54,593 nucleotides of DNA from Candidatus Moraniibacteriota bacterium (GCA_030679895.1 JAUXSN010000007.1:1-54593), one strand, 5' to 3'; positions 6,021 to 53,766 are shown, counted from the stretch's first letter. Program-made: numbers and translations. Notes: generated from the sequence alone by a model not told the origin.

Positions 6021-8390
6021 ATGAAAGAAATCTCCAAGCACTACAATCCCCAGGAAGTTGAGCCGAAGTGGCGCGAATTTTGGGAAAAAGAAGGAATATA
6101 TAGATTCAACCCCAAAGCCAAAGGGGAGATTTTTTCTGTGGACACTCCTCCGCCCTATGTTTCGGCCGACCATCTGCATGCCGGGCATGTGATGAGCTAC
6201 GCGCAAGCTGAATTTGTCGTCCGCTTCAAGCGCATGCGCGGATTCAATGTCTATTACCCGATGGGCTTTGACGATAACGGCTTGCCGACGGAAAGATTTG
6301 TTGAAAAGAAATATAAAATCAATAGGTCGAAAATTTCCCGATCCGAGTTCATAAAGCTTTGTCTTGAAGAAACAAAAAAAGGTTCAGAAAACTATAGAAA
6401 GCTCTGGACTCTTTTGGGAATTTCCGTTGACTGGACAAAAACATACAGCACCATTAACAAGCATTGCCGCCGGATTTCGCAGTGGTCTTTTATAGATCTC
6501 TATAAAAAAGAAAAAATTTACCGGGCCAAGAAGCCAATTCTCTGGTGCACGGCTTGCCGGACAGCCATTGCGCAAGCGGATCTTGAAGCCGAAGAAAAAG
6601 AAAGCAATCTGGTATATATAAAAGTAAAAGTTGAAACCGGAGACGAAATTGTTTTTGCGACAACAAGACCGGAACTCTTGCCCGCCTGTATGGGAATTTC
6701 CGTCCATCCGAACGACAAGAGATATAAAAAACTAATCGGAAAAAAGATCACTCTGCCTCTCACGAAAAAGAAGATAACCCTCACCGCGGATGTTGCAACG
6801 GACATGAAGTATGGTTCCGGAGTCGTCTATTATTGTTCTTACGGGGGAGGGGAATGCATTGAGTGGCTTTCGCGCCATCCAGAAGCGAAAGCGATTGAGC
6901 TCGTTCTTCCCAACGGACGATTTTCCAAGAACGGGGGCTCCTATGAAGGCATGAAAGTTTTGGAAGCCAGAAAAAAAATAGTCGAAGATCTCCAAAAAGC
7001 CGGCGCGATTGAAAAAATTGAACCGATCAAACATTCGGTTTATGTGCACGAACGATGCGGAACAGATGTAGAATATATCGAATCGGAGCAATGGTTCATT
7101 AAATTACTTGAAAGCAAAAAAGAATTTCTGAAGCGCGGACAGGAACTGAAATGGTTTCCAAAAACAATGAAACGAATTTATGACGAGTGGGTAGAAAACC
7201 TTAAATGGGACTGGTGCATTTCCCGCCAGCGCTATTTCGGCGTTCCTTTTCCGGTTTGGCATTGCGCGAAGTGCAGTGAAGTGATTTTGCCGGATGAAAA
7301 AGATCTGCCCGTCGATCCTCTCGAAGAGCAGCCAAGAATCAAAGCTTGCCCCAAATGCGGCGCAAAGGTATTCTTGCCGGAAAAAGACGTTTTTGACACC
7401 TGGCAGACATCGTCTCTCACGCCGATAATATCTCAAAAGCTCATGGGAGACGCGGCGACGCAGAAAAAACTGTACCCGAGTTCGCTTCGGCCGCAAGCGT
7501 TTGAAATAATAAGAACCTGGCTTTTCTATACGATCGTAAAATCCCACTATCACCACAACCATTTGCCATTCGCAAACGCTATGATTTCCGGGCATGGCCT
7601 CGATGAACAGGGAAGAAAAATATCAAAGCGATTGGGAAATTATATTCCGCCCGAAAAAATCATTGAAGAATATGGCGCTGACGCGATGCGTTATTGGGCG
7701 ACCGGGGCGACTCTCGGCCAGAGCTTGAGATTCAATATTTTGGAAGTCAAAAAAGGGCGGCGAACGACCACGAAATTGTGGAATGTGGCCCGCTTTATGG
7801 CTATGCACGAAAAAAAGCCCAAGCTCATCGCAAATAGCGACCATTTGGAACGGGCAGATTTCTGGATCCTTGAGGAAATGGATAAAACCATCGCCGAAGT
7901 TACCAAAAATTTTGAAAATTATACCTACGCCAAAGCCAAAGACAAGATTGATGATTTTTTCTGGTCGAAATTGGCGGATTATTATGTTGAATTTATCAAA
8001 TACCGGCTTTTTGGCGAAGATAAAAAATCAAAAGACGCGGCCATAAGAACGCTTACGACAGTTTTTTTCAATGTCATCAAAATGTACGCGCCGATTATGC
8101 CTTTTGTGACAGAAGAAATCTTCCAGACATTTTTTAAGGGCGCTGAAAAATCAAAGAGTATCCATTTGTCCGGATGGCCTGAAGAAATATCCGCATCGGG
8201 CGGAAAAGCCGCTGACATCTCGGATTTCAAGGAGGCTATTAAAGCTATTGACGAAATTCGCAAATTCAAAACCGAAAAGGGAATTTCATTGGGTATCGAC
8301 ATTAAATCGCTGAAACTGAAAACTAAAGTAAACCTCAAAAAATACGGCGATTTTTTGAAGAAAGCGGGACGGGTAAAAAAAATAACATAA
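6021..8390 (+). CDS. valS: Valine--tRNA ligase (short, archaeal-like type)
   Basis: DTPPPYVS..LHAGH (HIGH), GFDDNGLPTE, ATTRPEL, WDWCISRQRYFG, DVFDTW, KISKR (KMSKS variant); no C-terminal coiled-coil. Confidence 0.95.
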   Translation: MKEISKHYNPQEVEPKWREFWEKEGIYRFNPKAKGEIFSVDTPPPYVSADHLHAGHVMSYAQAEFVVRFKRMRGFNVYYPMGFDDNGLPTERFVEKKYKINRSKISRSEFIKLCLEETKKGSENYRKLWTLLGISVDWTKTYSTINKHCRRISQWSFIDLYKKEKIYRAKKPILWCTACRTAIAQADLEAEEKESNLVYIKVKVETGDEIVFATTRPELLPACMGISVHPNDKRYKKLIGKKITLPLTKKKITLTADVATDMKYGSGVVYYCSYGGGECIEWLSRHPEAKAIELVLPNGRFSKNGGSYEGMKVLEARKKIVEDLQKAGAIEKIEPIKHSVYVHERCGTDVEYIESEQWFIKLLESKKEFLKRGQELKWFPKTMKRIYDEWVENLKWDWCISRQRYFGVPFPVWHCAKCSEVILPDEKDLPVDPLEEQPRIKACPKCGAKVFLPEKDVFDTWQTSSLTPIISQKLMGDAATQKKLYPSSLRPQAFEIIRTWLFYTIVKSHYHHNHLPFANAMISGHGLDEQGRKISKRLGNYIPPEKIIEEYGADAMRYWATGATLGQSLRFNILEVKKGRRTTTKLWNVARFMAMHEKKPKLIANSDHLERADFWILEEMDKTIAEVTKNFENYTYAKAKDKIDDFFWSKLADYYVEFIKYRLFGEDKKSKDAAIRTLTTVFFNVIKMYAPIMPFVTEEIFQTFFKGAEKSKSIHLSGWPEEISASGGKAADISDFKEAIKAIDEIRKFKTEKGISLGIDIKSLKLKTKVNLKKYGDFLKKAGRVKKIT

Positions 8391-10555: not shown

Positions 10556-12340
10556 TTATTTTTTCACTGCAATATTCGCTTCGTTCAGTTGTTTTTCATC
10601 CACTTCGCTCGGACTATCCATCATCAGGTCTCGTCCGCTTCCGTCTTTGGGAAAAGCGTATATGTCCCGAATGGAGTCCAAATCATGAAGAACCATCAAA
10701 ATGCGGTCAATTCCCGGCGCGTTTCCTCCATGGGGAGGAGCGCCGTATTTGAAGGCGCGAACCAGCGCGCCAAAACGTTCATCCACGTCTTTCCTGGAAT
10801 AATTCGCGATTTCAAAAGCTTTATACATTATTTCCGGATCATGGTTTCGAATAGCGCCGCTGGAGGCTTCAAAACCGTTCAAAACCAAGTCGTATTGATA
10901 GGCTAGAACATCCAGGGGATCTTTTTCTTGAAGCGCCTGGAGTCCGCCTTGGGGCATAGAAAATGGATTGTGTTCAAAATCAATTTTTTTAGGGTCAATT
11001 TCCGAATAGGAATACATCGGGAAATCAACAATCCAGCACCAGGCCGCCAAGCTGCTGTCTTTCAATCCCAATTTGGCCGCGCATTCACTTCGGACAGCTC
11101 CCAGGCTCAAGCAAACCATTTTCCAGTCATCGGCTCCGAAAAATATAATATCATTTTCTTTCGCGCCGACCTCATCCACAATTTTTTGCGCCAAATCATC
11201 GCCTAAAAATTTAATTATGGGCGATTGTAATTTTCCTTCGCGGAAAAATATATAGGCAAGTCCCTTGGCACCTTTCATTTTCGAGATTTCGGTAAATTCG
11301 TCAATTTCTTTTCTCGTGAATTTTGCTCCGCCTTCAACTTTCAAGGCGTGAACGACACCGCCTTTATCGATCGCGTCCGAAAATACCGAAAATCCACAAT
11401 CTTTGACCGTTTCCGTGATCGGCCTGATCTCCATCTCAAATCTCAAGTCCGGTTTATCGGTTCCGAAGCGGGTCATAGCTTCCCGCCAGGGAATTCTTTG
11501 AAATTTTCCATTTTCATCCAGATTGACAATTTTCTTTTGGGAGAATTTTTTCGTCAGATCTATCATCAACGGATCCATCAGATCCAAAACATCTTCCTGG
11601 GTCACAAAACTCATTTCAATATCAAGTTGATAAAACTCGCCATAGTGCCTGTCCATTCGAGGATCTTCGTCCCGAAAACAGGGAGCAATTTGAAAATATC
11701 GGTCCAATCCTCCGACCATCAGAAGCTGTTTGAATTGCTGGGGGGCTTGAGGAAGAGCATAGAATTTCCCCGGGTGCAGCCGGGAAGGAACCAGAAAGTC
11801 GCGCGCCCCTTCCGGAGAAGAATTGGCGAGTATCGGCGTCTGGATTTCAATGAAATCGCGTGCCTGAAGATAATTTCTTATGTGTTGAATGTATTTATCT
11901 TTCAATGCGAGTAGTTTTTGGAGTTCCGGACGGCGCAGGTCAACGAAACGATACTGCAATCGCAAAGTTTCATTGGCTTCGTCTGATTTTTCTTCATCGA
12001 GTTCAAAGGGAGGAGTTTCGGATTTATTGAGAATCGCAAGTTCGCTGATTTCAACTTCTATTTCGCCGGTCACAAGTTTGGGATTGATCATTTCCGCGGG
12101 CCTCGCGACAACCGTGCCGGCAGCTTTCACGACCCACTCGTGCCGCAACTTGTCGGCCTCTTTCCATGCAACGCGGTCGATCGCGGAATCAAACTTGATT
12201 TGCGTAAGTCCGTAGCGGTCCCGCAGATCAATAAAAATAATCCCGCCATGATCCCGCCGCCGGTGCACCCAGCCGGCCAGAACAACCCCTTGGCCGATAT
12301 TGGATTTATTCAATTCCCCACAAGTGTGCGTTCGTAGCAT
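10556..12340 (-). CDS. aspS: Aspartate--tRNA ligase (possibly non-discriminating)
   Basis: MLRTHTCGEL, GWVHRRRDHGG, PEGARDFLVPSR, ALPQAPQQFKQLLM, CFRDED, GAPPHGG..PGIDR. Confidence 0.98.
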   Translation of the reverse strand: MLRTHTCGELNKSNIGQGVVLAGWVHRRRDHGGIIFIDLRDRYGLTQIKFDSAIDRVAWKEADKLRHEWVVKAAGTVVARPAEMINPKLVTGEIEVEISELAILNKSETPPFELDEEKSDEANETLRLQYRFVDLRRPELQKLLALKDKYIQHIRNYLQARDFIEIQTPILANSSPEGARDFLVPSRLHPGKFYALPQAPQQFKQLLMVGGLDRYFQIAPCFRDEDPRMDRHYGEFYQLDIEMSFVTQEDVLDLMDPLMIDLTKKFSQKKIVNLDENGKFQRIPWREAMTRFGTDKPDLRFEMEIRPITETVKDCGFSVFSDAIDKGGVVHALKVEGGAKFTRKEIDEFTEISKMKGAKGLAYIFFREGKLQSPIIKFLGDDLAQKIVDEVGAKENDIIFFGADDWKMVCLSLGAVRSECAAKLGLKDSSLAAWCWIVDFPMYSYSEIDPKKIDFEHNPFSMPQGGLQALQEKDPLDVLAYQYDLVLNGFEASSGAIRNHDPEIMYKAFEIANYSRKDVDERFGALVRAFKYGAPPHGGNAPGIDRILMVLHDLDSIRDIYAFPKDGSGRDLMMDSPSEVDEKQLNEANIAVKK

Positions 12341-12453: not shown

Positions 12454-13719
12454 ATGGACGCAAATAAAAATTGGGAAATTCTCAAACAAACCGATCCGGA
12501 GATATACGACGCCTTGATCGGCGAAGAAAAAAGGGAACAAAAAGGAGTGGAACTCATTCCTTCGGAAAATTATACCTATCCCGAAGTTTTTGCCGCCAAC
12601 GGCTCGATTTTGACTAATAAATACGCCGAAGGCTATCCGGGCAAACGATATTATGGCGGGCAAGAATATACGGATATTGTCGAAAATCTCGCGCGAGACC
12701 GCGCCAAGAAACTTTTTCGCTGTGAACACGCCAACGTCCAACCTCTTTCCGGTTCGCCTATGAACCAAGCCGTATATTTTGCCTTTCTCAATCCCGGCGA
12801 CACCGTTCTCGCGATGGAACTTTCGCATGGAGGGCATTTGACCCACGGCGCGCCGGTTTCGCACATGGGAAAAGTCTTCAATTTTGTCCGTTACAAAACC
12901 CATCCGGACGAAAAAGGAAGAATCGATTTTGAAGAACTTTTGAAAGTTGCCAAAGAATGCCGGCCGAAAATCGTCATGTGCGGATATACTTCTTATCCGC
13001 GAGATTATGATTATACGGATTTCAAAAAAGTGGCGGATGAAGTGGGCGCCATAACTTTCGCGGACGTCGCCCACATTGGGGGACTCATAGCAGCCGGCGT
13101 GATGAGAAATCCTTTTGATTATGGCTTTGACGTGGTTTCGACGACGACCCACAAGTCATTGCGCGGCCCGCGAGCGGGAATGATAATGTGCAAAGAAAAA
13201 TACGCCGCACAAATTGACAAATCTGTTTTCCCCGGTCTGCAGGGCGGTCCGCATATGCAAACAATTGCGTCAATAGCTGTCGCATTGGGCAAAGCGCTTG
13301 AACCGGAATTCAAGGAGTATGGAAAACAAGTTCTGGCCAATTCGAAAACTTTGGCCCGGGAGCTTATGGATAACGGTGTGAAACTTGTCACGGACGGGAC
13401 AGACAATCATATGATGGTTGCGAACACAGTGCAAAGTTTCGGCATCGACGGAAAATTGGCCGAGCAAACCCTGGATAAAATTTCCATCACTGTCAACAAA
13501 CAGATCATCCCGGATGATCCCAACCCGCCCTTGAAACCCAGTGGCATCAGATTGGGAACTCCCGCGGCGACAACGCGAGGAATGAAAGAAGATGATATGA
13601 AAAAATTGGGAAAATGGATCATTGAAGCCTTGAAAAATCATCAAGACGAAAGCAAACTGGAGGAAATCAAAAAAGAAGTTGAGAAGTTTTGCATCAAATT
13701 TCCAGTGCCGGGAATATAA
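12454..13719 (+). CDS. glyA: Serine hydroxymethyltransferase
   Basis: LIPSEN, NKYAEGYPGKRYYGG, GGHLTHG, STTTHKSLRGPR (PLP lysine), FPGLQGGP, SGIRLGTP. Confidence 0.99.
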   Translation: MDANKNWEILKQTDPEIYDALIGEEKREQKGVELIPSENYTYPEVFAANGSILTNKYAEGYPGKRYYGGQEYTDIVENLARDRAKKLFRCEHANVQPLSGSPMNQAVYFAFLNPGDTVLAMELSHGGHLTHGAPVSHMGKVFNFVRYKTHPDEKGRIDFEELLKVAKECRPKIVMCGYTSYPRDYDYTDFKKVADEVGAITFADVAHIGGLIAAGVMRNPFDYGFDVVSTTTHKSLRGPRAGMIMCKEKYAAQIDKSVFPGLQGGPHMQTIASIAVALGKALEPEFKEYGKQVLANSKTLARELMDNGVKLVTDGTDNHMMVANTVQSFGIDGKLAEQTLDKISITVNKQIIPDDPNPPLKPSGIRLGTPAATTRGMKEDDMKKLGKWIIEALKNHQDESKLEEIKKEVEKFCIKFPVPGI

Positions 13720-13721
13720 CC

Positions 13722-13744
13722 CACTCCAACATTCAATGTTGGGG
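13722..13744. repeat. Dyad repeat family copy 1 (CCAACATT-C-AATGTTGG), just after the glyA stop
   Basis: 19-nt identity (CACTCCAACATTCAATGTT) with 47384-47402; related copies at 31590-31622 and 54314-54346. Confidence 0.9.
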
Positions 13745-13761
13745 TAAAGAAATCTATTTAT

Positions 13762-13845
13762 ATGAAAAAGAGCAATATGCCTCCATACACGATCTGTTGC
13801 AAAACTTTCAGGTATAATATCTTGAGAGCCTTTTACTGTTGTTGA
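13762..13845 (+). CDS. Putative 27-aa leader peptide with two Cys-Cys pairs (MKKSNMPPYTICCKTFRYNILRAFYCC)
   Basis: Hand-translated; below the ORF-track cut-off; overlaps a segment complementary to the downstream terminator. May be spurious. Confidence 0.25.
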   Translation: MKKSNMPPYTICCKTFRYNILRAFYCC

Positions 13846-13872
13846 TAAAAAATATATAAGGATTAGCGGAAG

Positions 13873-13901
13873 AAAAGTTCTCAAGATATGAGAACTTTTT
13901 T
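13873..13901 (+). terminator. Intrinsic terminator directly upstream of the ParB-Srx gene
   Basis: AAAAGTTCTCA-AGATA-TGAGAACTTTT then more T's; ends about 19 nt before the ATG at 13920. Confidence 0.7.
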
Positions 13902-13919
13902 AATTTTTTACATAAAAAC

Positions 13920-14309
13920 ATGAAGAAAATTCAAATTATATCGATAAAAAAACTGAAGCCGCATGAAAAAACGAACCGGATAAACTTGAAAAAAATAAAA
14001 TTTCAACTACGCAAAGAGGGTCGGCTTATTAATCCGATTATTGTCGATCGGGATAATCTGATTATTCTTGACGGGCACCATAGGGTCAGAGCGTTGGCAG
14101 AACTGGGTTATAAAAAAATTGCGGCTTACTTAGTCGACTATTCCAGCGAACGGATAAAAGTGCTTCCGCGGAGACCTGGCATAAAGATTTCAAAGGAAAT
14201 AATTATCAAAAAAGCGCAAGCGGGGAAAGTTTTCCCGCATAAAACCTCAAAGCACCTTATTCCCGACAGGCCGAAAAATATAAACACCCCGCTTTATAGC
14301 TTGAAATAA
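13920..14309 (+). CDS. Stand-alone ParB/Sulfiredoxin-fold protein, SerK/SbnI-like
   Basis: LKPHE, PIIV, ILDGHHR, LVDY and C-terminal SKE.II....GKVFPHKTSKH.IP..P match both ends of archaeal SerK as I recall it; no HTH or central domain. Confidence 0.8.
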   Translation: MKKIQIISIKKLKPHEKTNRINLKKIKFQLRKEGRLINPIIVDRDNLIILDGHHRVRALAELGYKKIAAYLVDYSSERIKVLPRRPGIKISKEIIIKKAQAGKVFPHKTSKHLIPDRPKNINTPLYSLK

Positions 14310-14399
14310 AAGGGATGCGGAGATATGATAAGATTAGAGTTGATTTTAAACCACTAATATTTCTACGAAACTCATAAAAAAAATGACATGTGCGAATAT

Positions 14400-14428
14400 T
14401 TGTCGCAAAAATGAATATTTGCTATATT
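14400..14428 (+). promoter_or_regulatory. Sigma70-like promoter for the 14436 micro-ORF / EamA leader
   Basis: TTGTCG (14400-14405), 17-nt spacer, TG-c-TATATT (-10 at 14423-14428). Confidence 0.55.
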
Positions 14429-14435
14429 ATAACTA

Positions 14436-14528
14436 ATGGAGCAAAAACAAAAAACAAAGGACGAAAGCTGCACTGCTTATCAGTGTAGCGAGGGAGAACC
14501 AGGATGTGAAATTTCGAAAATCGTTTGA
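14436..14528 (+). CDS. Putative 30-aa Cys-containing peptide MEQKQKTKDESCTAYQCSEGEPGCEISKIV
   Basis: Hand-translated; ATG lies 7 nt after the -10 box (leaderless geometry); its C-x4-C-x6-C pattern resembles a segment of the 16731 protein. Confidence 0.45.
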   Translation: MEQKQKTKDESCTAYQCSEGEPGCEISKIV

Positions 14529-14696
14529 CGGATCTTTTTGCAATAGCTTCCCTTGCGATTTTTTTATCAATTTTCCGCTAACTCCCTGTCCTTGGTATTT
14601 TTTATCAACCGTCAAACTGTGGTCTTCTTAACTAATTACCCAAAAAGATATTAGAAATCTAGAACTTTTAAGTTTTACTAACTGCGTAGAAATCAT

Positions 14697-15620
14697 ATGA
14701 GTTGGTTTTTTATAGCACTTCTCGGGCCTTTTTTGTATGCTCTGACGAATTATATTGATAAAGTTCTCCTGGAGAGATATTTTAAAAAGAGTGGGATTGG
14801 CACTGTCCTACTTTTCTCTTCTTTGGGTTCTGTGTTTGCACTGCCTTTTTTCTTATTGATAGATAGAACAGTGTTAGATGTTAGTTTTGTAAATATTCTT
14901 ATTCTCGCGATTAAAGGAATGTTGGGTGTGGGGGTGCTGTGGTGCTATTTAATAGCTCTCAGGGACGAAGAAACCTCCGTAGTAATAGTTTTTTACCAGC
15001 TTGTTCCTGTGTTTGGAAGCATATTGGGTTATCTTGTGCTTGGTGAAGTTTTAACCCATATGCAATTGATTTCCATGGCGATCATTATTCTTGGTACGAC
15101 AATCATTGCGTTTGAAGTAGATTTAGATAATCATTTTAAGCTTCGAAAAAAGAGTACTATTATACCAATGCTAGGGGCTTCCTTTTTTTGGGCATTAGGC
15201 GGAACCATTTTTAAATTAGTAGCGCTTAAAGAAAATTTATGGAGATCATTGTTTTGGGAAAACCTTATGTTCGTATTAGTAGGTATTTGTATATTTATTT
15301 TTATACGTTCTTATCGAGAAAATTTTATATCGGCGTTTAAAAGTAACTCTAAAAATATTTTATCACTCAATGTTTTGAATGAGTCTATATACATATCAGG
15401 AAATGTGGTTGTTGCCTACGCGTATCTTCTTGCTCCTGTCGGGCTCGTATTGCTTACACAATCATTTCAACCAATTTTCGTTTTGTTTATAGGTGTGATA
15501 CTGACCGTTTTCTTTCCAAAAATAATAGTTGAGAAAATAGAGGCAAAACATATCTGGCAAAAAATTATTGCAATCAGTCTAACGGGAATCGGCACCTATC
15601 TTTTGCTTTTTTATAAATAA
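14697..15620 (+). CDS. EamA/DMT-family transporter
   Basis: About 10 hydrophobic helices in two repeats; ALTNYIDK, YQLVPVF, LVLGEVL, QPIFVL. Confidence 0.88.
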   Translation: MSWFFIALLGPFLYALTNYIDKVLLERYFKKSGIGTVLLFSSLGSVFALPFFLLIDRTVLDVSFVNILILAIKGMLGVGVLWCYLIALRDEETSVVIVFYQLVPVFGSILGYLVLGEVLTHMQLISMAIIILGTTIIAFEVDLDNHFKLRKKSTIIPMLGASFFWALGGTIFKLVALKENLWRSLFWENLMFVLVGICIFIFIRSYRENFISAFKSNSKNILSLNVLNESIYISGNVVVAYAYLLAPVGLVLLTQSFQPIFVLFIGVILTVFFPKIIVEKIEAKHIWQKIIAISLTGIGTYLLLFYK

Positions 15621-15698
15621 GATTCGCTAATTTAAAATTTTGCCATTTATATAGAAAAGTAATATAGTAAGGTTCATTCAACATATTTACTATTTTTT

Positions 15699-16658
15699 AT
15701 GATACCCGAATTTCCGAATTTCAAAAAACTAGAGCTGTCAGACAAAAAAGAGATTGAAAAATTTCTTTCAAAATTCCCACCGTACTCAGTTTTTAATTTT
15801 ACGAATTTATGGGCGTGGGATATAAGAGCTGATCGTAAAATAGCAAAACTAAATGGAAATTTAGTTGTACGCTTTACGGACTATGAAACAAAGGAGCCAT
15901 TCCTTTCTTTTTTAGGTGTCAATAAATGTGAAAGTACCGTATTCACACTTTTGTCATTTGCCGGCAGTTCAAATATATCTCCAAAACTCCGCTTCATAAC
16001 AGAAGAATCAAGCATGCGTCTGCAATCTGTCAATTTGCTTGTAAAAGAGGACCGCGACAATTTTGATTACTTTTTTTCTACGGCTGAGCTAGCTAAGCTC
16101 CAAGGTATCAAATTTAAAAAACATAGGAATCTTGCCAGAAGATTCTCGGAAAAATATCCGGATGCTGTTTTTCAATTAAAAGATCTGAGTGATTTATCAA
16201 TACAGAACAAACTTCATCTTGTGTTGCGACAGTGGGAGCAGCGGAAAAAAATGCAAAATAAAGCATGCGATCTAAAGTTTGAAAAAAAAGCACTCAATCG
16301 TTTGCTAAAAAATGCCAAGACTCATAAGTTAATCTTGTCCTGCATTTTTTTACATGATGCGTTGCTTGGTTTCAGTATTGACGAAGTATTGCCCGGTCGA
16401 AACGCGATTGCCCATTTTATCAAAGCCGATAATTCTTTTAGAGGCATATATGAGTTTCTCAATAGGGAATTAGCTCAATATCTAACAACCCTTAAAATTA
16501 CGTTATGGAATTGGCAACAAGATTTAAATATTAAAAATTTAAGGGAAACAAAATTAGGTTATCGTCCAATTGCTTTCCTCAAAAGATATACAGTCTCACT
16601 TAATGCTGCCCATGAGCATGATTTGCAAAAACTACACAAAGAAGTTCTTAAAAAATAA
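15699..16658 (+). CDS. DUF2156 / aminoacyl-phosphatidylglycerol-synthase-like GNAT domain protein (soluble)
   Basis: FNFTNLWAW, EDRDNFDY, L.G.KFKKHRN, HFIKAD...GIY, QQDLNIKNLRETKLGYRP follow the DUF2156 pattern. Confidence 0.85.
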   Translation: MIPEFPNFKKLELSDKKEIEKFLSKFPPYSVFNFTNLWAWDIRADRKIAKLNGNLVVRFTDYETKEPFLSFLGVNKCESTVFTLLSFAGSSNISPKLRFITEESSMRLQSVNLLVKEDRDNFDYFFSTAELAKLQGIKFKKHRNLARRFSEKYPDAVFQLKDLSDLSIQNKLHLVLRQWEQRKKMQNKACDLKFEKKALNRLLKNAKTHKLILSCIFLHDALLGFSIDEVLPGRNAIAHFIKADNSFRGIYEFLNRELAQYLTTLKITLWNWQQDLNIKNLRETKLGYRPIAFLKRYTVSLNAAHEHDLQKLHKEVLKK

Positions 16659-16730
16659 ATATAAGGCGTTGATGTCCTTGCTCTTGCATAATCACACTTA
16701 TTTATGTAATATTAATGTAGCAAATCGACT

Positions 16731-17147
16731 ATGGATGTTAAACAAAAAATTCGTAATTACTTTTTTTTCTACATACTCGCGACTCTTATTTTCGTCGTCG
16801 GTGTTTTTTCTTATTACCGTTTTATTATCAAGCAAGACTATATGGTTGGATATGAAGGCGTCTGCGATCCAGTTGCAAATACGAATAAATGTTTTGTAGG
16901 TTGCGAGGATGATGCTTGCACTAAAGAGTACTACTACTTAAAGATGGTAAAATATGCGCCTGATTTATACAAAGAATGCGGCGAAGATATAACTGATTGT
17001 GAATCGGCTAATTCGTGTCTTCCGGGCGATCACGATTGTTCCGAAACATATTGCAACCCTGAAGACGAAGGTGACACTTGCGCAACGGAGAAAAATACCC
17101 AAAACGATAAGAACGATGTTAAAGAAGAATCATCACAAAATGAATAA
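16731..17147 (+). CDS. Membrane-anchored cysteine-rich acidic protein
   Basis: One N-terminal TM helix, then 10 Cys in about 75 aa and an acidic tail; 12 nt from the kinase gene. Confidence 0.85.
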   Translation: MDVKQKIRNYFFFYILATLIFVVGVFSYYRFIIKQDYMVGYEGVCDPVANTNKCFVGCEDDACTKEYYYLKMVKYAPDLYKECGEDITDCESANSCLPGDHDCSETYCNPEDEGDTCATEKNTQNDKNDVKEESSQNE

Positions 17148-17159
17148 ATAATCCAATTT

Positions 17160-18863
17160 ATGATCTGCTATTTATTTTCAAAGCCTCTATATTTCATATT
17201 CTCCTCGGATGTACCGTCACTTCTATATTATTCACATATACCGACAGCTATAGTTGCAATCTTGATTGGTATTTTTGTCTTCTGGAAAGGCAAGCAATTA
17301 CTAATCAACCGGTTGTTATTTGCTATCTCCGCTTGTTTTTCTCTTTGGGTAATTTTAAATCTTATCTTATGGACAAATATTCATAGTGATCTTATGCTGT
17401 TTGTTTGGTCCTTTCTTCGGGTATTGTCCTCTCTCATATCAATCCTCAGCATATATTTCATTTATGTCTTTCTGGGGGGGAAAGACGTATCTTTCCGGCT
17501 TAAAATTATTTTTTTAATACTTACGGTTCCTATTATTATTTTATCTTCAACCTATATAAATCTGAGGGGATTCAATATTGCAAGTTGTGATGCGTTTATG
17601 TTCGAAGGACCCTTGTTTCAGTTCTCCCGTGTCTTTTTTGGAGTATTGGCAATGATTTGGATATTTGTTCTGCTTATTCGCAAATACCGCACAGCAGAAG
17701 TTAATTTCAGAAAACAAATATTACTCATGGGAGTAGGGATGGAGTTGTTTCTCTTTTCTTTCTTTATGGTAACATTCTTAGCGGCATATCTTACTGATAT
17801 GGGCTTAGTGTCTGATTCGCGAATTGAGTTTTATGGACTGTTTGGCATGGATATATTTGTTGCTTTCTTGGCCTATCTCATTGTCCGCTACAAGACCTTC
17901 AATATCAAATTGATCGCGACCCAGGCTCTTGTCATCGCCCTTATTATTCTCATAGGCTCGCAGATCTTCTTCGCCCAGAGCCTTACTAATACAATCTTGA
18001 TAGGCGTCACTCTTATCATATCTCTGGCATTCGGCTACATGCTCGTAAGATCGGTAAATATGGAAGTCCAAAGAAAAGAAGAACTTGAAATTCTTTCTAC
18101 TAAGCTGGCGCAAGCGAATGATAAGTTGCATCAGCTCGACAAGACCAAATCGGAGTTTATTTCCATCGCTTCGCATCAGCTGCGGACGCCGTTGACGGCC
18201 ATCAAGGGCTTTGTGTCGCTTCTTTTGGAGGGAACCTACGGCCAGGTGCCGGAAACCCAAAAAGGCGCGCTGGAGAAAGTATATATTTCCAATGAAAGGC
18301 TGGTGCAATTGGTTGAGGACTTACTGAACATTTCCCGCATTGAGTCCGGGCGGATGGAATTTGATTTTCAGGAGGCGCAAATTGAGGATCTCATCACCGA
18401 AGCGGCGAATACGCTTGATCTTTCGGCGAAGAATAAGGGGCTATATCTCGAATGGAAAAAGCCGGAGAAAATATCCCCAAAAATCAAAATTGACATCACC
18501 AAGGTCAAAGAAGTTATTTCCAATATGATCGATAACTCGATCAAGTATACGCAAAAAGGCGGTGTCACTGTCCGGATGGAAAATGGCGTTTTTTTTGATC
18601 ACAACACAATGGAACGGAAAAATGTTTTGCGGGTGATCGTATCTGACACTGGAATCGGGATGGAGAAAGAGGATATTGAGAATATTTTCGATAAATTCGT
18701 GCGCGGAAAAGAAATCAGCCACTACCACACCGACGGAACGGGACTCGGAATGTTCATCGCCAAGAAAGTAACCGAGGCCCATCAAGGCAAAATCTGGGCC
18801 GAATCAGCTGGAAAGGGGAAAGGAAGCCGGTTTATTTTGGAATTGCCGGTGAATATCACGTAA
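17160..18863 (+). CDS. Multi-TM sensor histidine kinase
   Basis: Hydrophobic N-terminal half; H-box EFISIASHQLRTPL, N-box NMIDNSIKYT, DTGIG, GTGLGM, GKGSRF. Confidence 0.96.
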   Translation: MICYLFSKPLYFIFSSDVPSLLYYSHIPTAIVAILIGIFVFWKGKQLLINRLLFAISACFSLWVILNLILWTNIHSDLMLFVWSFLRVLSSLISILSIYFIYVFLGGKDVSFRLKIIFLILTVPIIILSSTYINLRGFNIASCDAFMFEGPLFQFSRVFFGVLAMIWIFVLLIRKYRTAEVNFRKQILLMGVGMELFLFSFFMVTFLAAYLTDMGLVSDSRIEFYGLFGMDIFVAFLAYLIVRYKTFNIKLIATQALVIALIILIGSQIFFAQSLTNTILIGVTLIISLAFGYMLVRSVNMEVQRKEELEILSTKLAQANDKLHQLDKTKSEFISIASHQLRTPLTAIKGFVSLLLEGTYGQVPETQKGALEKVYISNERLVQLVEDLLNISRIESGRMEFDFQEAQIEDLITEAANTLDLSAKNKGLYLEWKKPEKISPKIKIDITKVKEVISNMIDNSIKYTQKGGVTVRMENGVFFDHNTMERKNVLRVIVSDTGIGMEKEDIENIFDKFVRGKEISHYHTDGTGLGMFIAKKVTEAHQGKIWAESAGKGKGSRFILELPVNIT

Positions 18864-18935
18864 CACAAAACAAAGAGCATGGAATAATGTTTGCGCCGCG
18901 TTTTTTGTTCCATGTTACGTGTTCTGTGCTCTATG
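18861..18935. repeat. Degenerate heptamer-period inverted array
   Basis: Right arm TGTTCCA TGTTACG TGTTCTG TGCTCTA; left arm carries complementary AACA/AGCA units. Confidence 0.55.
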
Positions 18936-18996
18936 GAAAAATTGTCTTTTCGTGCCGATTGTGGTACGATTTTTTAGTAATAATTGATTAGAATTC

Positions 18997-20277
18997 ATGC
19001 AAAAAAATATGGAAAAAGTCTGCGTCATTGGTCTCGGATATGTCGGTTTCCCGCTGGCGGTTTTGTGTTCGGTGAAAGGCTACGAAGTTTATGGATTTGA
19101 CAAGGATGAAAAAAAACTCGCGAGAATTGAAAAGGGCGAAAATATCGTTGAGGAAAAATATCTCGGTGAACTGCTCCCGAAAGCGAAAATTAAGGTGATT
19201 CGCGACGAATCTCAAATGAAAGACTGCGATATTTTCATTATCGCCGTTCCAACGCCGGTCGATGAAAAATATTATCCGGATTTGAGTTATATTGTTTCTG
19301 CCTCCGAAACCGTGGCCAAAAACATGAAAAAAGGCTCCTTAGTCATCGTGGAATCAACAATCAATCCGGGTGTTTGCGAAGAATTCGTCCGCCCGGCCTT
19401 CGAAAAGGAAGGATTTGCCATCGGCCAAGACGTTTTTATTTCTCATTGCCCCGAGCGAATTAATCCGGGCGATCCAAGGTGGAACGTAACCAACATCCCG
19501 CGAGTGGTCGGCTCATTTGACGAGAAAGGACTCGAAAAAAGCGTGAAATTTTATGAAAGCATAATCGACGCGAAGATCATGCCGATGAAAACTATTCGAG
19601 AGGCGGAAGCGGTCAAAATAATGGAAAATTCCTTTCGCGACATCAATATTGCTTTTGTCAACGAGCTGGCGAGATCTTTCAATCTGATGGATATAGACGT
19701 GGTTAATGTCATCCGGGGCGCTTCAACCAAGCCTTTTGCATTTATGGCTCATTGGCCCAGTTGCGGCGTTGGGGGACATTGCATTCCGGTCGATCCTTAT
19801 TATCTGATCGAAAAAGCCAAGGAAAATGATTTCGACCATCAGTTTTTGCGAGTGGCTCGCGCCATCAACAACGGAATGCCATTGTATAGCGTTGAACTTT
19901 TGCAAGATGAGCTCAATAGTCTGGGCAAATCATTGAAAGGCGCCAAAATTGGCCTTCTGGGAGTTTCTTATAAGGCCAATGTCGGCGATCTGCGCGAAAG
20001 TCCGGCCCTCAAGATCATCGAGCTTTTGGAAAAGCATGGCGCGGTTCTCAATATTTACGATCCGTTTATTCCGAAACTTTCGAACGTCAGCAGTGTTGAA
20101 GAAATTTTGGAAAAATCAGAGGCTATCTTTCTTGCCACAAGTCACAATGAATTTGTGAAAATTCCCGCGGAAAAATTTAGGGAAAAGGGGATCGGCTTGA
20201 TTGTGGACGGGATGAACTGCCTGGATAAAGACAAAATACTGGCACTGGGGATAAAGTATAAGGGAATAGGCCGCTAG
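18997..20277 (+). CDS. UDP-N-acetylhexosamine 6-dehydrogenase (WecC/WbpA family)
   Basis: VIGLGYVG, AVPTP, ESTINPG, PERINPG, KIMENSFR, GGHCIPVDP, SYKANVGDLRESP. Confidence 0.93.
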   Translation: MQKNMEKVCVIGLGYVGFPLAVLCSVKGYEVYGFDKDEKKLARIEKGENIVEEKYLGELLPKAKIKVIRDESQMKDCDIFIIAVPTPVDEKYYPDLSYIVSASETVAKNMKKGSLVIVESTINPGVCEEFVRPAFEKEGFAIGQDVFISHCPERINPGDPRWNVTNIPRVVGSFDEKGLEKSVKFYESIIDAKIMPMKTIREAEAVKIMENSFRDINIAFVNELARSFNLMDIDVVNVIRGASTKPFAFMAHWPSCGVGGHCIPVDPYYLIEKAKENDFDHQFLRVARAINNGMPLYSVELLQDELNSLGKSLKGAKIGLLGVSYKANVGDLRESPALKIIELLEKHGAVLNIYDPFIPKLSNVSSVEEILEKSEAIFLATSHNEFVKIPAEKFREKGIGLIVDGMNCLDKDKILALGIKYKGIGR

Positions 20278-20468: not shown

Positions 20469-21296
20469 ATGGCGAAAATAATGATCGTCGAGGATGATCC
20501 GATGCTGGTTGAAATATACGAAAAAAAGCTCTTGGACACGGGATTTGAAATCAAAATCGTGACGAGCGGCAAAGCGGTAAAAGATGAAGCCCTTTTATGG
20601 CATCCTGATCTAATTCTCCTGGACGTTGTTTTGCCGGATATGGACGGATTTGAAATCCTTGAAGCCGTCAAAAAAGAAAATGAGATCAAAAGCATTCCGG
20701 TATATGTATTCAGCAACTTAAGCGCCAAAGAAGATATTGACCGGGCCACAAGTTTAGGCGCGGCGGGTTTTTTGACAAAATCGAATTTTACCCCTTCCCA
20801 GCTGGCGGAAGAAGTAAAAAAACTGGTCGGCGACCAATCCTCATCTTCCATTACCTCTCCACCGGAACCATCCCAGTCAGCTTCTCCGACCGAAGAATTT
20901 CCGCTTAAAAAAGAAACTGGCGGACACAAAGTTCTGATAATCGAAGATGAAGATATTTTTATTGAAATGTTCGGGGACAAACTAAAACAGGAAGGTTTTG
21001 AAGTTGTCGCGGCTAAAAATGGAAAATGGGGAATCAAGGAAGCGGAAAAGGGTCTTTTTGACTGCGTACTTCTTGATATGATGATGCCGGCCATGAACGG
21101 CTACGAGGCGATAAAGGAACTTCGGGCAAATGAAGCGACAAAAAATACTCCGGTTATCATTTTGTCCAACTCGGCAATGGATAGCGAAGTGAAACAAGCG
21201 CTTGACCTGGGAGCCGACGCGTACTATGTGAAAACGCAAATCACTCCCGGCGAAGTGGTCAAGAAAGTGAAGGAACTTATTGGAAATAAAAAATAG
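20469..21296 (+). CDS. Response regulator with two receiver domains and no output domain
   Basis: IVEDD...LLDVVLPDMDG and IIEDE...LLDMMMPAMNG joined by an S/P-rich linker. Confidence 0.93.
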   Translation: MAKIMIVEDDPMLVEIYEKKLLDTGFEIKIVTSGKAVKDEALLWHPDLILLDVVLPDMDGFEILEAVKKENEIKSIPVYVFSNLSAKEDIDRATSLGAAGFLTKSNFTPSQLAEEVKKLVGDQSSSSITSPPEPSQSASPTEEFPLKKETGGHKVLIIEDEDIFIEMFGDKLKQEGFEVVAAKNGKWGIKEAEKGLFDCVLLDMMMPAMNGYEAIKELRANEATKNTPVIILSNSAMDSEVKQALDLGADAYYVKTQITPGEVVKKVKELIGNKK

Positions 21297-49809: not shown

Positions 49810-50784
49810 ATGCCAGAAAATAAAGAATTACTAAAAAGTATTGCTACGGAATTTAATGTTCACCCAATTCATTTGAGAATGTTTATGGCTAATTTTAAAT
49901 GCGAACTCGAAAACATAAAATCCGTCTTCGAGAAAAGCAATATTGTCAGTCCGAAACCATTTGTAAAATGGGTTGGCGGAAAAAGACAATTAGCAAAACA
50001 ATTTCGTGATCTCGATCTTTATCCGCCGGATGAATTCAATCCCGAGACAGCGACCTATTTTGAGCCATTCGTCGGAGGAGGAGCAATGTTTTTCGATCTG
50101 TTGCCTCAAGAAGCTGTTTTGTCTGACATGAACCAAGAGTTGGTGATTGCATATAGTGTCATCAAAAAAAATGTTGACGCTTTAATAAAAAAACTCAGAG
50201 AGCATCAGAAAAAAAACAGTAAAGAATATTACCTGAAAATTCGGGCGCAAGAAACGAACAAACTTTCTCCATTGTCCGTGGCTGCGCGCTTCATATATCT
50301 CAATCGCACGGGATTCAATGGACTATATCGGGTGAACCGAAAAGGAATATTCAATGTTCCTTATGGGGACAACAAAAATCCATTGATTTGCGATGAAAAG
50401 AATTTGAGAAAGGTAAATGCCGCTTTGAAAAGTACAAAAATATTTCGGCAGGATTATAAAAAAGTTTTAAACAGTGCAAGAAAAGGCGATTTTATCTATT
50501 TTGATCCGCCCTATTATCCAGTTAGCAAAACTGCTGCCTTTACAAGCTACACAAAGGAGGCCTTTCTGGAAAAAGAGCAAACGGAACTTCGAGATGTTTT
50601 TATGAAGCTTCACAAACAAGGCTGTTTTGTGATGCTTTCCAACTCCGACACGCCATTCATCAACAAGCTATATTCTAATTTAGATAAAAAAATCACAACT
50701 AACAAAGTCTTCGCTGGGCGATCGATTAACTCGAAAGGAAGCGGGAGAGGGAAGATTAGTGAGATTGTGGTAATTAACTATTAG
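49810..50784 (+). CDS. Dam/DpnM-like DNA adenine methyltransferase (GATC)
   Basis: KPFVKWVGGKRQL, EPFVGGG, LNRTGFNGLYRVN..G.FNVP, DPPY, F.SY, SNS. Confidence 0.95.
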   Translation: MPENKELLKSIATEFNVHPIHLRMFMANFKCELENIKSVFEKSNIVSPKPFVKWVGGKRQLAKQFRDLDLYPPDEFNPETATYFEPFVGGGAMFFDLLPQEAVLSDMNQELVIAYSVIKKNVDALIKKLREHQKKNSKEYYLKIRAQETNKLSPLSVAARFIYLNRTGFNGLYRVNRKGIFNVPYGDNKNPLICDEKNLRKVNAALKSTKIFRQDYKKVLNSARKGDFIYFDPPYYPVSKTAAFTSYTKEAFLEKEQTELRDVFMKLHKQGCFVMLSNSDTPFINKLYSNLDKKITTNKVFAGRSINSKGSGRGKISEIVVINY

Positions 50785-50788
50785 TGAA

Positions 50789-51388
50789 ATGAAAATAATT
50801 TTTGATACACTTTTTATTTATTTGGATAGTTTAAAATGGCCAATTACGCTTGGTGTATTTGGATATTATTTTAGAATTGAGTTGAAGCAGATTTTTAAAA
50901 ATGGATTTTTCCTAAAACATGGCAATACCGAACTTAATTTCCCTCAAGTCAATCAAAGCCCGGCGGAAGAAAAAAACAACGAGGAAATCGAAAAAACAAC
51001 CGAAAGTAAAACTCAAGAAGAAATCCAAAATCTTTTGGATGACAATAAAGATAAAGACAATCAAATCTTTAAATTTAAGCTTGAAAAGCATTTTGAGTAT
51101 ACTTATCGCATTATATTTAAATCACAAATTAATTTATTGTTAAAAATGCAAGCCATTACTGATGGCTTCCCCCCACTTCAAATAGGATCGTATTTCCAAG
51201 ACATTCAAAAATCATTTCCCATTTTAAAAAACTCATCAGTGGATCAGTATTTAAAGTTTGTGCTTGACCAAAATTTGATTGATAGAGATAGTACTACTGG
51301 AAAAATTAAATTAACTCCCATAGGTAATTTATTTTTGCAATACATTATATTGAATCAATATAATTTTGAATCTGAAAAAATTATATAA
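50789..51388 (+). CDS. Hypothetical protein, N-terminal hydrophobic segment and C-terminal winged-helix-like region
   Basis: LKWPITLGVFGYYF; charged linker; YLKFV..QNLI...KLTPIG..FLQY. Confidence 0.75.
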   Translation: MKIIFDTLFIYLDSLKWPITLGVFGYYFRIELKQIFKNGFFLKHGNTELNFPQVNQSPAEEKNNEEIEKTTESKTQEEIQNLLDDNKDKDNQIFKFKLEKHFEYTYRIIFKSQINLLLKMQAITDGFPPLQIGSYFQDIQKSFPILKNSSVDQYLKFVLDQNLIDRDSTTGKIKLTPIGNLFLQYIILNQYNFESEKII

Positions 51389-51417
51389 GCTAATTTTGAT
51401 TTCGCTTATTGAACAAT

Positions 51418-52284
51418 ATGGAAAAAAATTTTGAGAATCTAGTTATCACGTTAAAAAATTCTCTCAAAACCTGGGATTATTTTGTTAATTGGGAAAAGAT
51501 TTTTTCCAATAGCTCAGAATTAGAAATTATTCTCAATAAGCTTAATTACCTCCTAGGAAAAGAAGATTTGAAGGCAGAATTCAAAAAACTATTTGAAACT
51601 AATCCTGACATCGTGAAAGCCTTCCCTGTTTTGCTAGCCGTTCGTGAAAAACAACTTGAAATATTTTCGATCGATGACGGAAGTTCTGAATTTTTTAATT
51701 TTGGCGCAAGCCGAAAAGAAGACGATGGCTTTGAAAAATATTATTCATTTCTTGAAAAATCTAATTTGATAAATCTTTTCAAAAAGGATGGCATCAAAAA
51801 TTTGGTCGATTATGTAATTGGAGTTGAAGTCGGATTAGATAGTAATGGAAGAAAAAACAGGGGAGGTTCTCTCATGGAAAAAATAGTTGAATCGCACATA
51901 AAAAATTTATGCGATTTAAATGGTTTTGAATTTATAGCGCAAGCCAGAGCAACAGACATCCGCAAGAAATGGGGTGTCGAAGTTCAAGTGGATAAATCAG
52001 AAAGAAGTTTTGATTTCGCCGTTTATAATCAGGGTAATGAACAAATAAAATTATTCGAAGTGAATTTCTATAATGGTGGCGGATCAAAATTGAAGGCTGT
52101 TTGTGGAGAATTTAAGAGTTTATACGATGAACTCAAAAGACAAAATATTGATTTCGTTTGGATTACGGATGGGTTGGGTTGGCACACGGCTAAGCGACCA
52201 TTAGAGGAAACATACAATCATAACGAATACGTTTTCAATCTTCATATGATTGAGCAAGGGGTTCTTGGAGAATTAAATTGGTAA
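51418..52284 (+). CDS. DpnII/MboI-family type II restriction endonuclease
   Basis: YFVNWEK, DYVIGVEVGLDSNGRKNRGG..ME, FDF, EVNFY..GGSKL, FVWITDG.GW. Confidence 0.95.
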   Translation: MEKNFENLVITLKNSLKTWDYFVNWEKIFSNSSELEIILNKLNYLLGKEDLKAEFKKLFETNPDIVKAFPVLLAVREKQLEIFSIDDGSSEFFNFGASRKEDDGFEKYYSFLEKSNLINLFKKDGIKNLVDYVIGVEVGLDSNGRKNRGGSLMEKIVESHIKNLCDLNGFEFIAQARATDIRKKWGVEVQVDKSERSFDFAVYNQGNEQIKLFEVNFYNGGGSKLKAVCGEFKSLYDELKRQNIDFVWITDGLGWHTAKRPLEETYNHNEYVFNLHMIEQGVLGELNW

Positions 52285-52338
52285 CAAATAAGCGATAATT
52301 AAAATATTCAGTCAGCACGGACTTCAATTTTTTCTATT

Positions 52339-52950
52339 ATGACTCAATATCCAACAGTAAAGCTAAATGTAAATTTAAGGGATGACGAGGCACTCGACGA
52401 TATAGTTGAAAAGCATGAAAGAAATAGAAATATACTTAGGGAGCGCGCTCTTAAGGAGTTTTTAATGGAGAGGCCTGGCACGGGAACAAAAGAGCTGGCA
52501 GCGAACTATAGATATGACGTCGAGACTTTAGCTAACGGGGACTGTGTTTTTGTAACCAGGCCAGTTGCACTTAATAAAGGCTTTGATTTTATTATCCATG
52601 TAACTAATCACGTTTTTTCCAATAATAGAGACTATCCTAGGCATGACGATATATTTAACGATATTAGAAATAAAATTGAATTTGTTGAAGACAAGTTGAA
52701 AGATAATCTAAGAAAGGATTTATACACTATCTTTGAAAAGGTGTATTTTTGTGTGAATACCGATTTAATTTTAGAAAATTTTAAATTATCAGATGAATCT
52801 TTCAATAAACTTCCTGGCTTCAGTTTAGAAATGCTAATAAAGGTTATTAAATGGTTTTTTATTGAACAAGACATTAGATATTGGAATTGGTCTGGAAGAA
52901 AGAAATTCTGGGATTCTTTGGTTGAAATAGTCGGAAAGCCGACGAAATAA
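52339..52950 (+). CDS. Hypothetical protein within the R-M locus
   Basis: Long ORF with motif-like RP..LNKGFDF, P.HDDI, KWFFIEQDIRYWNWSGR. Confidence 0.8.
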   Translation: MTQYPTVKLNVNLRDDEALDDIVEKHERNRNILRERALKEFLMERPGTGTKELAANYRYDVETLANGDCVFVTRPVALNKGFDFIIHVTNHVFSNNRDYPRHDDIFNDIRNKIEFVEDKLKDNLRKDLYTIFEKVYFCVNTDLILENFKLSDESFNKLPGFSLEMLIKVIKWFFIEQDIRYWNWSGRKKFWDSLVEIVGKPTK

Positions 52951-52962
52951 GAATAAAAAAAA

Positions 52963-53712: not shown

Positions 53713-53766
53713 CTTCAGAAACGAGATACGTATTTCCAGCGGGGGGTAATAATTTTAAATAATAAA

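Follow-up and report, generated by a model that had tools for sequence, protein, structure and literature searches.

The DNA analysed here, hereafter the window, is a contig of 54,593 nt from a Candidatus Moraniibacteriota bacterium (own genome, G000), in which six open reading frames (ORFs), all in one orientation on the ORF map, lie downstream of glyA (12454-13719), within the tract 13720-18863. A preliminary description had read the six co-oriented genes as a single pathway of synthesis, export and sensing; they are present where it placed them, and its assignment of an EamA protein, a soluble DUF2156 protein, a membrane protein with 10 Cys and a histidine kinase with multiple transmembrane (TM) segments holds by Pfam and hydropathy. 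Only four of the six, encoding the EamA permease, the DUF2156 protein, the Cys-rich protein and the kinase, make up a unit, and this cassette shows conserved linkage, a mosaic structure with breakpoints, and a hypervariable sensor on a conserved kinase core. The features of the tract are the following (aa, amino acids):

13920-14309, plus strand: ParB/Srx-like protein (mini-SerK), 129 aa, outside the cassette
14436-14528, plus strand: ORF of 30 aa, inside a relic of a long-form Cys-rich gene (14415-14528)
14653-17850, plus strand: exchanged block, delimited by blastn breakpoints and holding the EamA, DUF2156 and Cys-rich genes and kinase codons 1-230
14697-15620, plus strand: EamA/DMT permease, 307 aa (Pfam EamA, E 4.2e-13)
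15699-16658, plus strand: DUF2156/LPG_synthase_C tandem-GNAT protein, 319 aa (Pfam PF09924, E 2e-23)
16731-17147, plus strand: Cys-rich single-pass membrane protein, 138 aa with 10 Cys, of no named family, a predicted co-sensor of the kinase
17160-18863, plus strand: multi-TM HisKA/HATPase kinase, with a sensor half (17160-17852) and a resident half (17853-18863)

The EamA protein scores 50.2 bits in Pfam against a cut-off of 28.2 and has hydrophobic segments throughout, and the DUF2156 protein scores 83.3 bits for PF09924 against a cut-off of 27.5, with zero hydrophobic or TM segments over its 319 aa. The products of 30 and 138 aa matched no Pfam or NCBIfam model.

Conserved linkage of the four genes

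Linkage was surveyed in 79 loci, one genome per species, and in a set of 61 related genomes; among the relatives, G001 belongs to the same genus, G003 to the same family and G060 to another family of the same order. The DUF2156 protein was detected in two of the 61 genomes, G000 itself and G060, whose locus (L003) carries, between tyrS and HIT/proS, a row of EamA (83% identical), DUF2156 (70%), a SET-domain gene, the Cys-rich protein (63%) and the kinase (61%), and in which neither the ParB-like gene nor the peptide ORF is found. All four genes occur together in 11 of the 79 loci of other genomes (L004-L007, L010, L011, L014, L027, L034, L061 and L072, of which L006 is a near-copy of the G060 locus) in addition to G060, with varying gene order and a DUF2156 identity down to 34%, the EamA of the window being 82-88% identical to that of L003, L004 and L005. 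In 50 of the 79 loci the DUF2156 gene has a kinase within 3 kb (39 of the 49 where at least 3 kb is present on both sides), and in 30 it has EamA, as detected with this query, at that distance; of the 29 loci that lack such a kinase, most are short contigs or belong to other phyla, such as Aminicenantes, Bacteroidales and some Clostridium. The ParB-like protein and the 30-aa ORF were found in none of the 79 loci, so that the gene-neighbourhood linkage sought after the preliminary description extends to four genes and leaves out mini-SerK and the peptide.

In the window a gap of 12 nt separates the stop of the Cys-rich gene from the start of the kinase gene; in seven of the 11 other distinct loci the stop and the start overlap by 4 nt. 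The GC (guanine plus cytosine) content of the cassette is below that of the flanks in 10 of 11 cassette loci. A second layout is found in a further 31 loci, where DUF2156 is accompanied by a 7-TM protein of 275 aa, a soluble protein of 92 aa and a cytoplasmic kinase, codirectional or divergent; hhalign of the sensor half of the first layout against this 275-aa protein gave a probability of 1.1%, which does not show homology between the two.

A mosaic kinase and an exchanged block

By blastn, the segment from 14653/14690 to 17849/17890 is 76-86% identical in DNA to L003 (G060), L004 and L005, which are cassettes of distant genomes. Homology to G001 ends at 13752 and resumes at 17853 (80.6% over 17853-18850), homology to G003 ends at 13718 and resumes at 17841, and the DNA breakpoints fall at ~14653-14696 and 17841-17890. 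The kinase is divided accordingly. Over residues 1-230 its identity is 77-83% with the kinases of G060, L004 and L005 but 33-34% with those of G001 and G003; over residues 301-567 (the core) it is 88% with G001, as against 32-55% with the cassette-locus kinases. Among themselves, G060, L004 and L005 have sensors that are 77-83% alike on cores that share 33-47%, i.e., the same input module occurs on different cores in several lineages. A crude hydropathy scan places the crossover in the seventh of ~nine hydrophobic segments: the sensor half comprises the first seven, with short loops only and no large outer domain, and the resident half the last two TM segments, HisKA and HATPase_c. The Pfam HisKA_7TM domain (PF16927) reached 26.6 bits on the N-terminus of the kinase, below its cut-off of 28.6. 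G001 and G003 preserve the gene order glyA ... kinase, UDP-sugar dehydrogenase, REC-REC regulator, MFS. As judged from these alignments, the kinase of the window is a chimera of an incoming sensor and a resident core, and the four-gene block was exchanged horizontally, as one unit, onto that core.

Base composition changes at the same point. The GC content is 0.31-0.39 across 13720-17852, as opposed to 0.45-0.47 in glyA, aspS, the kinase core and the genes beyond; it is 0.345-0.372 in the exchanged block and 0.453 in the kinase core, with an intragenic step from 0.354 to 0.453. The AT-rich tract noticed at the outset is therefore real, but it stops within the kinase gene at ~17850 and not at 18863, and since one of its edges falls inside a gene it is not a simple island.

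The mosaic is not an assembly artefact: the 17850 junction is spanned by contigs of four sequencing runs, which belong to four other studies, the possible source run of the window having been excluded from this check. The X4 contig (27,356 nt) is collinear from glyA through mini-SerK and again from EamA up to the kinase stop, with 573 other nt in place of 14316-14629, the zone of the relic described below, which may be less decayed in that strain. In the same related strain, 636 other nt replace the 161-nt spacer after the kinase gene (18851-19013).

A variable slot next to a hypervariable sensor

The kinase core was detected at E <= 1e-60 in 14 of the 19 genomes of the family, of which 12 were compared (G000, G001, G003 and nine with upstream DNA; G002 and G012, whose contigs end at the gene, were omitted). 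Their cores are 69-89% identical and their sensor halves 14-55%, and each of the 12 genomes carries a different gene set in the slot upstream of the kinase. Outside the window these slots hold:

G001: SAM (S-adenosylmethionine)-decarboxylase-like gene, EamA-like permease, PurD-like ATP-grasp ligase, PrmA-like methyltransferase
G003: Cys-rich protein of 241 aa, SAM-decarboxylase-like gene, GNAT, EamA-like permease, methyltransferase, SET protein
G004: ATP-grasp, Orn/Arg-decarboxylase-like enzyme, EamA-like permease, long Cys-rich protein
G005: GNAT, MFS-PlsC fusion (L122 4582-6423)
G007: methyltransferase-like protein, HIT, ATP-grasp
G008: SET, half-EamA, long Cys-rich protein
G009: asparagine-synthase-like enzyme
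G013: aminotransferase
G014: unknowns
G015: SET, MFS
G016: PlsC-type acyltransferase

The fraction of shared slot proteins goes with the identity of the sensors (Spearman 0.44) and not with that of the cores (-0.05) over 105 pairs, and likewise within the family over 66 pairs (0.43 and -0.04); the pairs are non-independent and the gene lists were hand-picked from ORF maps, so that these values describe a trend, not a test. On that trend, sensor likeness appears to track slot content.

SET, PrmA-like methyltransferase and Acetyltransf_3 genes are recurrent among the slots. Small SET-domain proteins (~170-190 aa) also recur more generally beside these kinases or DUF2156 genes, namely in L003 (G060) at 6197-6721, in L088 (G003) at 11057-11575, and in L011, L046, L061, L115 and L117. 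The MFS-PlsC fusion of G005, a layout known from lysophospholipid transporter-acyltransferases, is of possible relevance to lipid scavenging in the Candidate Phyla Radiation (CPR).

A Cys-rich protein predicted to bind the sensor half

In the Cys-rich protein, 10 Cys are invariant over 14 sequences, all of which have a Lys-rich N-terminus and one TM helix. The family is new: it comprises 771 representative clusters at E <= 0.001 in a 50%-identity library, 440 of them at E <= 1e-10, and no Pfam model describes it. Fold searches with the model of the protein found nothing convincing, the best hit having E 2.5 by Foldseek against the PDB and Z 3.6 in the wide VIA-align search, with no usable match in the ESM Atlas; because the model is of moderate quality (predicted local distance difference test, pLDDT, 72.6), the absence of a fold match does not establish a new fold.

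Prediction of a complex between kinase residues 1-300 and the Cys-rich protein gave a score of 0.70 (runs of 0.72, 0.68 and 0.70), as compared with 0.00 for the best of three controls. Of 157 solved complexes, 116 attain the 0.70 mark, as do two of 215 mismatched pairs; with own alignments used here, these counts hold only roughly. The three runs agree in at least 96% of contacts, with a partner pLDDT of at least 73. In the predicted interface, the TM helix of the Cys-rich protein (8-35) packs on kinase segments 76-92 and 109-130, and the first strand outside the membrane (37-42) contacts loop 135-148 of the kinase, likewise on the outer side, an arrangement that fits the topology shared by the two proteins. 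The prediction favours an association between the Cys-rich protein and the kinase's sensor half.

Two Cys of the kinase are predicted to lie outside the membrane, the nearly invariant Cys3 and the invariant Cys143; the latter is located in the loop 135-148, in predicted contact with the Cys-rich protein, and a disulfide is possible either within the kinase or between the two proteins.

A putative acyl or aminoacyl transferase in an amine context

When the DUF2156 family profile was searched by sequence against the PDB, the sole match was 2HQY (BT_3689 of Bacteroides thetaiotaomicron, E 3.4e-35), with no MprF chain, and phmmer aligned the protein of the window with 2HQY over residues 8-302 (E 1.5e-18). 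The structural model (pLDDT 90.7) leads to the same entry (Foldseek E 8.5e-21, TM-score 0.79-0.85, 24-25% identity), followed by MprF soluble domains, FemX and aminoacyl-tRNA-dependent peptide synthases with TM-scores of 0.53-0.63 and E of 1e-8 to 1e-11 (MprF soluble domains 0.60-0.63 at 9-13% identity; FemX and MprF together 0.57-0.63), and then by tandem-GNAT acetyltransferases, which by fold rank after the aminoacyl-tRNA transferases (E ~1e-6). No fused DUF2156 form of 560-2000 aa was found at E <= 1e-10, which is weak evidence. These matches suggest that the protein is an acyl or aminoacyl transferase of the BT_3689/2HQY type. BT_3689, which is soluble and of ~300 aa, resembles it in full-length sequence as well as in fold and, like HPB8_1270 of H. 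pylori, is a stand-alone DUF2156 tandem-GNAT protein of barely known function. The 2HQY crystal is reported with acetyl-CoA bound and HPB8_1270 is described as a likely protein acetyltransferase (PMC10700544). Free-standing fungal DUF2156 proteins are reported to aminoacylate ergosterol using Gly-tRNA (PMC8913301), and the fungal ErdS to be an AspRS-DUF2156 fusion (PMC8913301, PMC7334510).

A SAM-decarboxylase-like gene is present in 17 of the 79 loci, as well as in the slots of G001 and G003, and lies at most 52 nt upstream of DUF2156 in L014, L027, L039, L054 and L061, three of which are four-gene loci; in L078 the same position is taken by a pyridoxal phosphate-dependent Orn/Arg decarboxylase. 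These decarboxylase neighbours point to an amine as the acceptor. An apparent SAM-decarboxylase-EamA fusion ORF in L025, first suggested by a phmmer match, was dropped, Pfam giving EamA only.

An AspRS gene is found near the module in eight of the 79 loci and in the window. It lies 1-3 kb downstream of the kinase in the following loci, three of the six being confirmed as the non-discriminating Asp-tRNA(Asn) type:

L011: 14682-16034
L034: 12975-14318
L072: 12430-13788
also L012, L018 and L061

A bacterial-type aspS is found near the module in L017, L019 and the window (10556-12340). As proof of an Asp-tRNA donor this neighbourhood was rejected, since G001 and G003 keep aspS and have no DUF2156.

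Two ORFs outside the unit

When the 247-aa Cys-rich protein of G001 was searched with tblastn, its residues 6-21 (13/16 identical) and 117-136 (15/20) matched the window at ~14415-14517, collinear and in one frame, the first match starting upstream of the ATG of the 30-aa ORF. In G060, 48 aa from the N-terminus of this long-form gene survive immediately before EamA. The 30-aa ORF, which had been taken for a Cys peptide gene and a substrate of the pathway, is thus a relic of an older long-form Cys-rich gene and not a free-standing peptide gene, and its presence is consistent with an older G003-like module, headed by a Cys-rich gene, having been replaced.

Mini-SerK matches the NCBIfam SerK model NF053625 with E 1.8e-19 at 69.9 bits, the cut-off being 380, and the free serine kinase 5x0b in the PDB with E 5.7e-11 over the N-domain and the C-terminal tail; its residues 6-101 align to 1vk1 and 5x0b, and the DGHHR motif is present. 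The SerK-likeness first proposed thus holds for the N-domain and the tail, while the score remains below the cut-off and the middle domain is absent. In comparison with SerK of Thermococcus (5X0B) and with SbnI, it shares the ParB/Srx N-domain with DGHHR and the C-terminal tail, but has 129 aa instead of ~242. A short SerK-like protein (129-141 aa) was found at strong E-values in two of the 61 related genomes, G000 and G008; the G008 homologue (63%, L096 9547-9972) is encoded in a cysteine-synthesis neighbourhood, between cysK/M and cysS and beside corA, and in G000 the corA-cysK/M-cysS row is on another contig and has no mini-SerK. The gene lies outside the exchanged block, and one X2 contig appears to skip it, which is a hint only, the joint having 37 nt on its short side at 90% likeness. 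Mini-SerK is probably a short free-serine kinase for the route from Ser through O-phosphoserine to Cys, a role in which its position after glyA is sensible; it appears to be tied to cysteine synthesis, is unrelated to the cassette, and may represent a minimal free-serine kinase feeding cysteine synthesis in CPR bacteria.

A proposed make-export-sense module and its alternatives

We tentatively favour, with a confidence that stays a little short of even, the reading of the cassette as a make-export-sense module, in which the product of the enzyme is exported and sensed by the module's own swapped receptor. A 3.2-kb module has replaced an older one in the variable slot between glyA and the resident kinase core. 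Its DUF2156 enzyme would N-acylate a small amine, the donor being acetyl-CoA or aminoacyl-tRNA and the acceptor probably of the polyamine or decarboxylated-amino-acid type, presumably made elsewhere in the cell. EamA would carry the compound across the membrane, presumably outward, and the Cys-rich ectodomain protein, docked as predicted on the sensor helices, would report the compound outside, supposedly the module's own product, to the kinase. The conserved core would then signal to a REC-only regulator, and the REC-REC protein, by its synteny in G001 and G003, is the likely resident partner of that core. Within every slot variant a particular chemistry would be matched to a particular receptor, in the manner of the agr/comQXP specificity groups.

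Several observations weigh against this mechanism. EamA proteins are capable of import as well as export. The cassette of the window has no decarboxylase, and the sole AdoMet_dc match of G000 is on another contig, in an unrelated context. The REC-REC regulator has no output domain. The score of the predicted complex is the model's own confidence and not a measurement. The evidence for the donor is divided, the acetyl-CoA reported for 2HQY standing against the likeness in fold to aminoacyl-tRNA transferases. Lipid enzymes are found in some slots (PlsC-type in G016, MFS-PlsC in G005) and would better fit envelope remodelling than signal synthesis. Finally, the co-transfer of the sensor may reflect no more than the position of the core as the nearest homology available for recombination.

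The wider proposal that CPR bacteria use private-channel signalling, by swappable cassettes of enzymes and receptor that recombine at the TM/kinase junction and so create strain 'dialects', is possible but doubtful.

The main rival is transport-coupled homeostasis or detoxification, which we regard as rather unlikely though a serious contender: a compound from outside (an amine, a polyamine or a toxic cation) would be imported or expelled and be acetylated by the DUF2156 enzyme, and the kinase would monitor the permease and the Cys-rich protein physically, so that sensor and cassette co-vary because they touch and not because a self-made signal is sensed. The short loops of the sensor half, like those of kinases relying on accessory proteins, and its predicted binding to a membrane protein encoded in the cassette would be expected under this explanation, and in Firmicutes transporter-dependent flux sensing is known from the Bce-type kinases. 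The pairing of a transporter with an acetyltransferase fits the blt-bltD and SpeG/MdtJI pairs. The acetyl-CoA in 2HQY and the probable acetyltransferase of H. pylori, as reported in PMC10700544, point the same way. However, close relatives differ wholly in their slot enzymes, which a diversifying specificity explains more easily.

An improbable alternative is a split MprF-like system, in which DUF2156 would aminoacylate a membrane lipid (a scavenged phosphatidylglycerol or glycolipid), EamA would flip it and the kinase would sense envelope charge or stress. It can appeal to the PF09924 match, to the fold matches that follow 2HQY (MprF soluble domains, FemX and the aminoacyl-tRNA-dependent peptide synthases), to the lipid acyltransferases in two slot variants, to the aminoacylation of sterols from Gly-tRNA by fungal DUF2156 proteins (PMC8913301) and to the AspRS genes near the module in eight of the 79 loci and in the window, for which the ErdS fusion offers a precedent (PMC8913301, PMC7334510). 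Yet the profile retrieves no MprF structure by sequence and the TM-scores reach only 0.60-0.63, the protein has no membrane anchor, fused forms of at least 560 aa were not found (weak evidence), the tight pairing with decarboxylases points to a soluble amine, and G001 and G003, both without DUF2156, have aspS nearby as well.

Still less probable is that the enzyme is a protein lysine acetyltransferase acting on a signalling or envelope protein, such as the Lys-rich cytoplasmic tail of the Cys-rich protein, with the other slot enzymes (SET, PrmA-like, RimJ/L-like GNAT) being likewise protein modifiers. The proposal made for HPB8_1270 in PMC10700544, the recurrence of SET, PrmA-like methyltransferase and Acetyltransf_3 genes in the slots and the Lys-rich cytoplasmic N-termini of the Cys-rich proteins speak for it, but it leaves the permease and the decarboxylases adjacent to the enzyme unexplained.

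The original six-ORF pathway, in which serine from GlyA would pass through SerK to phosphoserine and/or the 30-aa peptide to yield a product that is tRNA-dependently aminoacylated, exported and sensed, is already largely refuted and has become very hard to credit: the genes are co-oriented and adjacent and the likeness to SerK is real, but mini-SerK and the peptide ORF occur in none of the 79 loci and are absent from G060, the ORF is a relic, the homologue of mini-SerK has a cysteine-synthesis context, and its gene lies outside the exchanged block and seems to be skipped in the X2 contig (a weak joint of 37 nt), so that the proposed link of glyA, SerK and phosphoserine to the cassette is not supported. 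That the tract is no functional unit but an insertion hotspot or a chimeric assembly, as its low GC and the high variability of the slot among relatives might suggest, is just as remote and already contradicted by the linkage counts, the same four genes being linked across deep divergence, with the 4-nt overlap of Cys-rich and kinase genes in seven of the 11 other distinct loci and with contigs of four other studies bridging the junction.

Comparison with known systems

Histidine kinases that sense via accessory membrane proteins or transporters are exemplified by BceS-BceAB, LiaS-LiaF and WalK-YycHI. The kinase of the window resembles them in its short-loop sensor and in the adjacent, translationally coupled membrane protein that is predicted to bind its helices, and differs in that this partner belongs to a new Cys-rich family of no known fold and that the sensor half is exchanged along with enzymes.

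As in agr of S. aureus and comQXP of Bacillus, genes for synthesis and export adjoin a multi-TM histidine kinase, and a variable block runs into the sensor half and leaves the kinase half conserved. The agr-type circuit first suggested is borne out to this degree, but the locus has no precursor peptide gene. Further differences are that the kinase is of the HisKA type and the regulator REC-only, not of the LytTR or NarL type, that small-molecule transferases are present, with an enzyme family that changes from genome to genome, and that there is an extra, predicted Cys-rich co-sensor. The agr hypervariable regions and agr types are mentioned in PMC6834553, and the ComP-ComX and AgrC systems are treated in general in PMC8895600.

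MprF, ErdS and ErgS share the Pfam domain and the tandem-GNAT fold with the DUF2156 protein, and ErgS is also free-standing (PMC8913301). In contrast with MprF, the cassette enzyme has no flippase or anchor domain and no sequence-level match to an MprF structure, and its neighbours are decarboxylases, a DMT permease and a kinase, not lipid genes.

A literature search found no published description of this module. By what means the ultra-small, host-dependent CPR/Patescibacteria perceive one another or their hosts is little understood. The locus offers a concrete unit, in which the input half of the kinase, a putative Cys-rich co-receptor family, a permease and a transferase are inherited and exchanged together while the signalling core stays. 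Should the module both make and sense a compound of its own, it would represent the first proposal of cell-to-cell signalling in CPR and a natural case of plug-in receptor specificity, and under the swappable-cassette proposal close relatives would differ in 'dialect' like the staphylococcal agr groups, by means of small-molecule chemistry. Were it instead a homeostatic or envelope system, it would still provide context for the large stand-alone DUF2156 clade and for the unnamed Cys-rich family.

Flanking signals and further features

Three further features accompany the tract:

13871-13901, plus strand: terminator-like hairpin after glyA, with 13 pairs and a trailing T run, outside the cassette
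18950-18969, plus strand: terminator-like hairpin downstream of the kinase gene
20469-21296, plus strand: REC-REC response regulator with two Pfam Response_reg domains

The first of these is the dyad repeat that the preliminary description had noted after glyA. An Rfam scan of 13600-19100 at E <= 1 returned zero matches, i.e., no known riboswitch or leader in the 387-nt gap upstream of EamA. Promoter-like sites are not enriched (15 observed versus 17.0 expected from shuffled sequence), the repeat search found no direct or inverted flanking repeats that would mark a mobile element, and the list of ORFs in the tract includes no integrase or transposase. A second low-GC zone occupies the right end of the window (50001-54593, GC 0.30-0.37 per kb).

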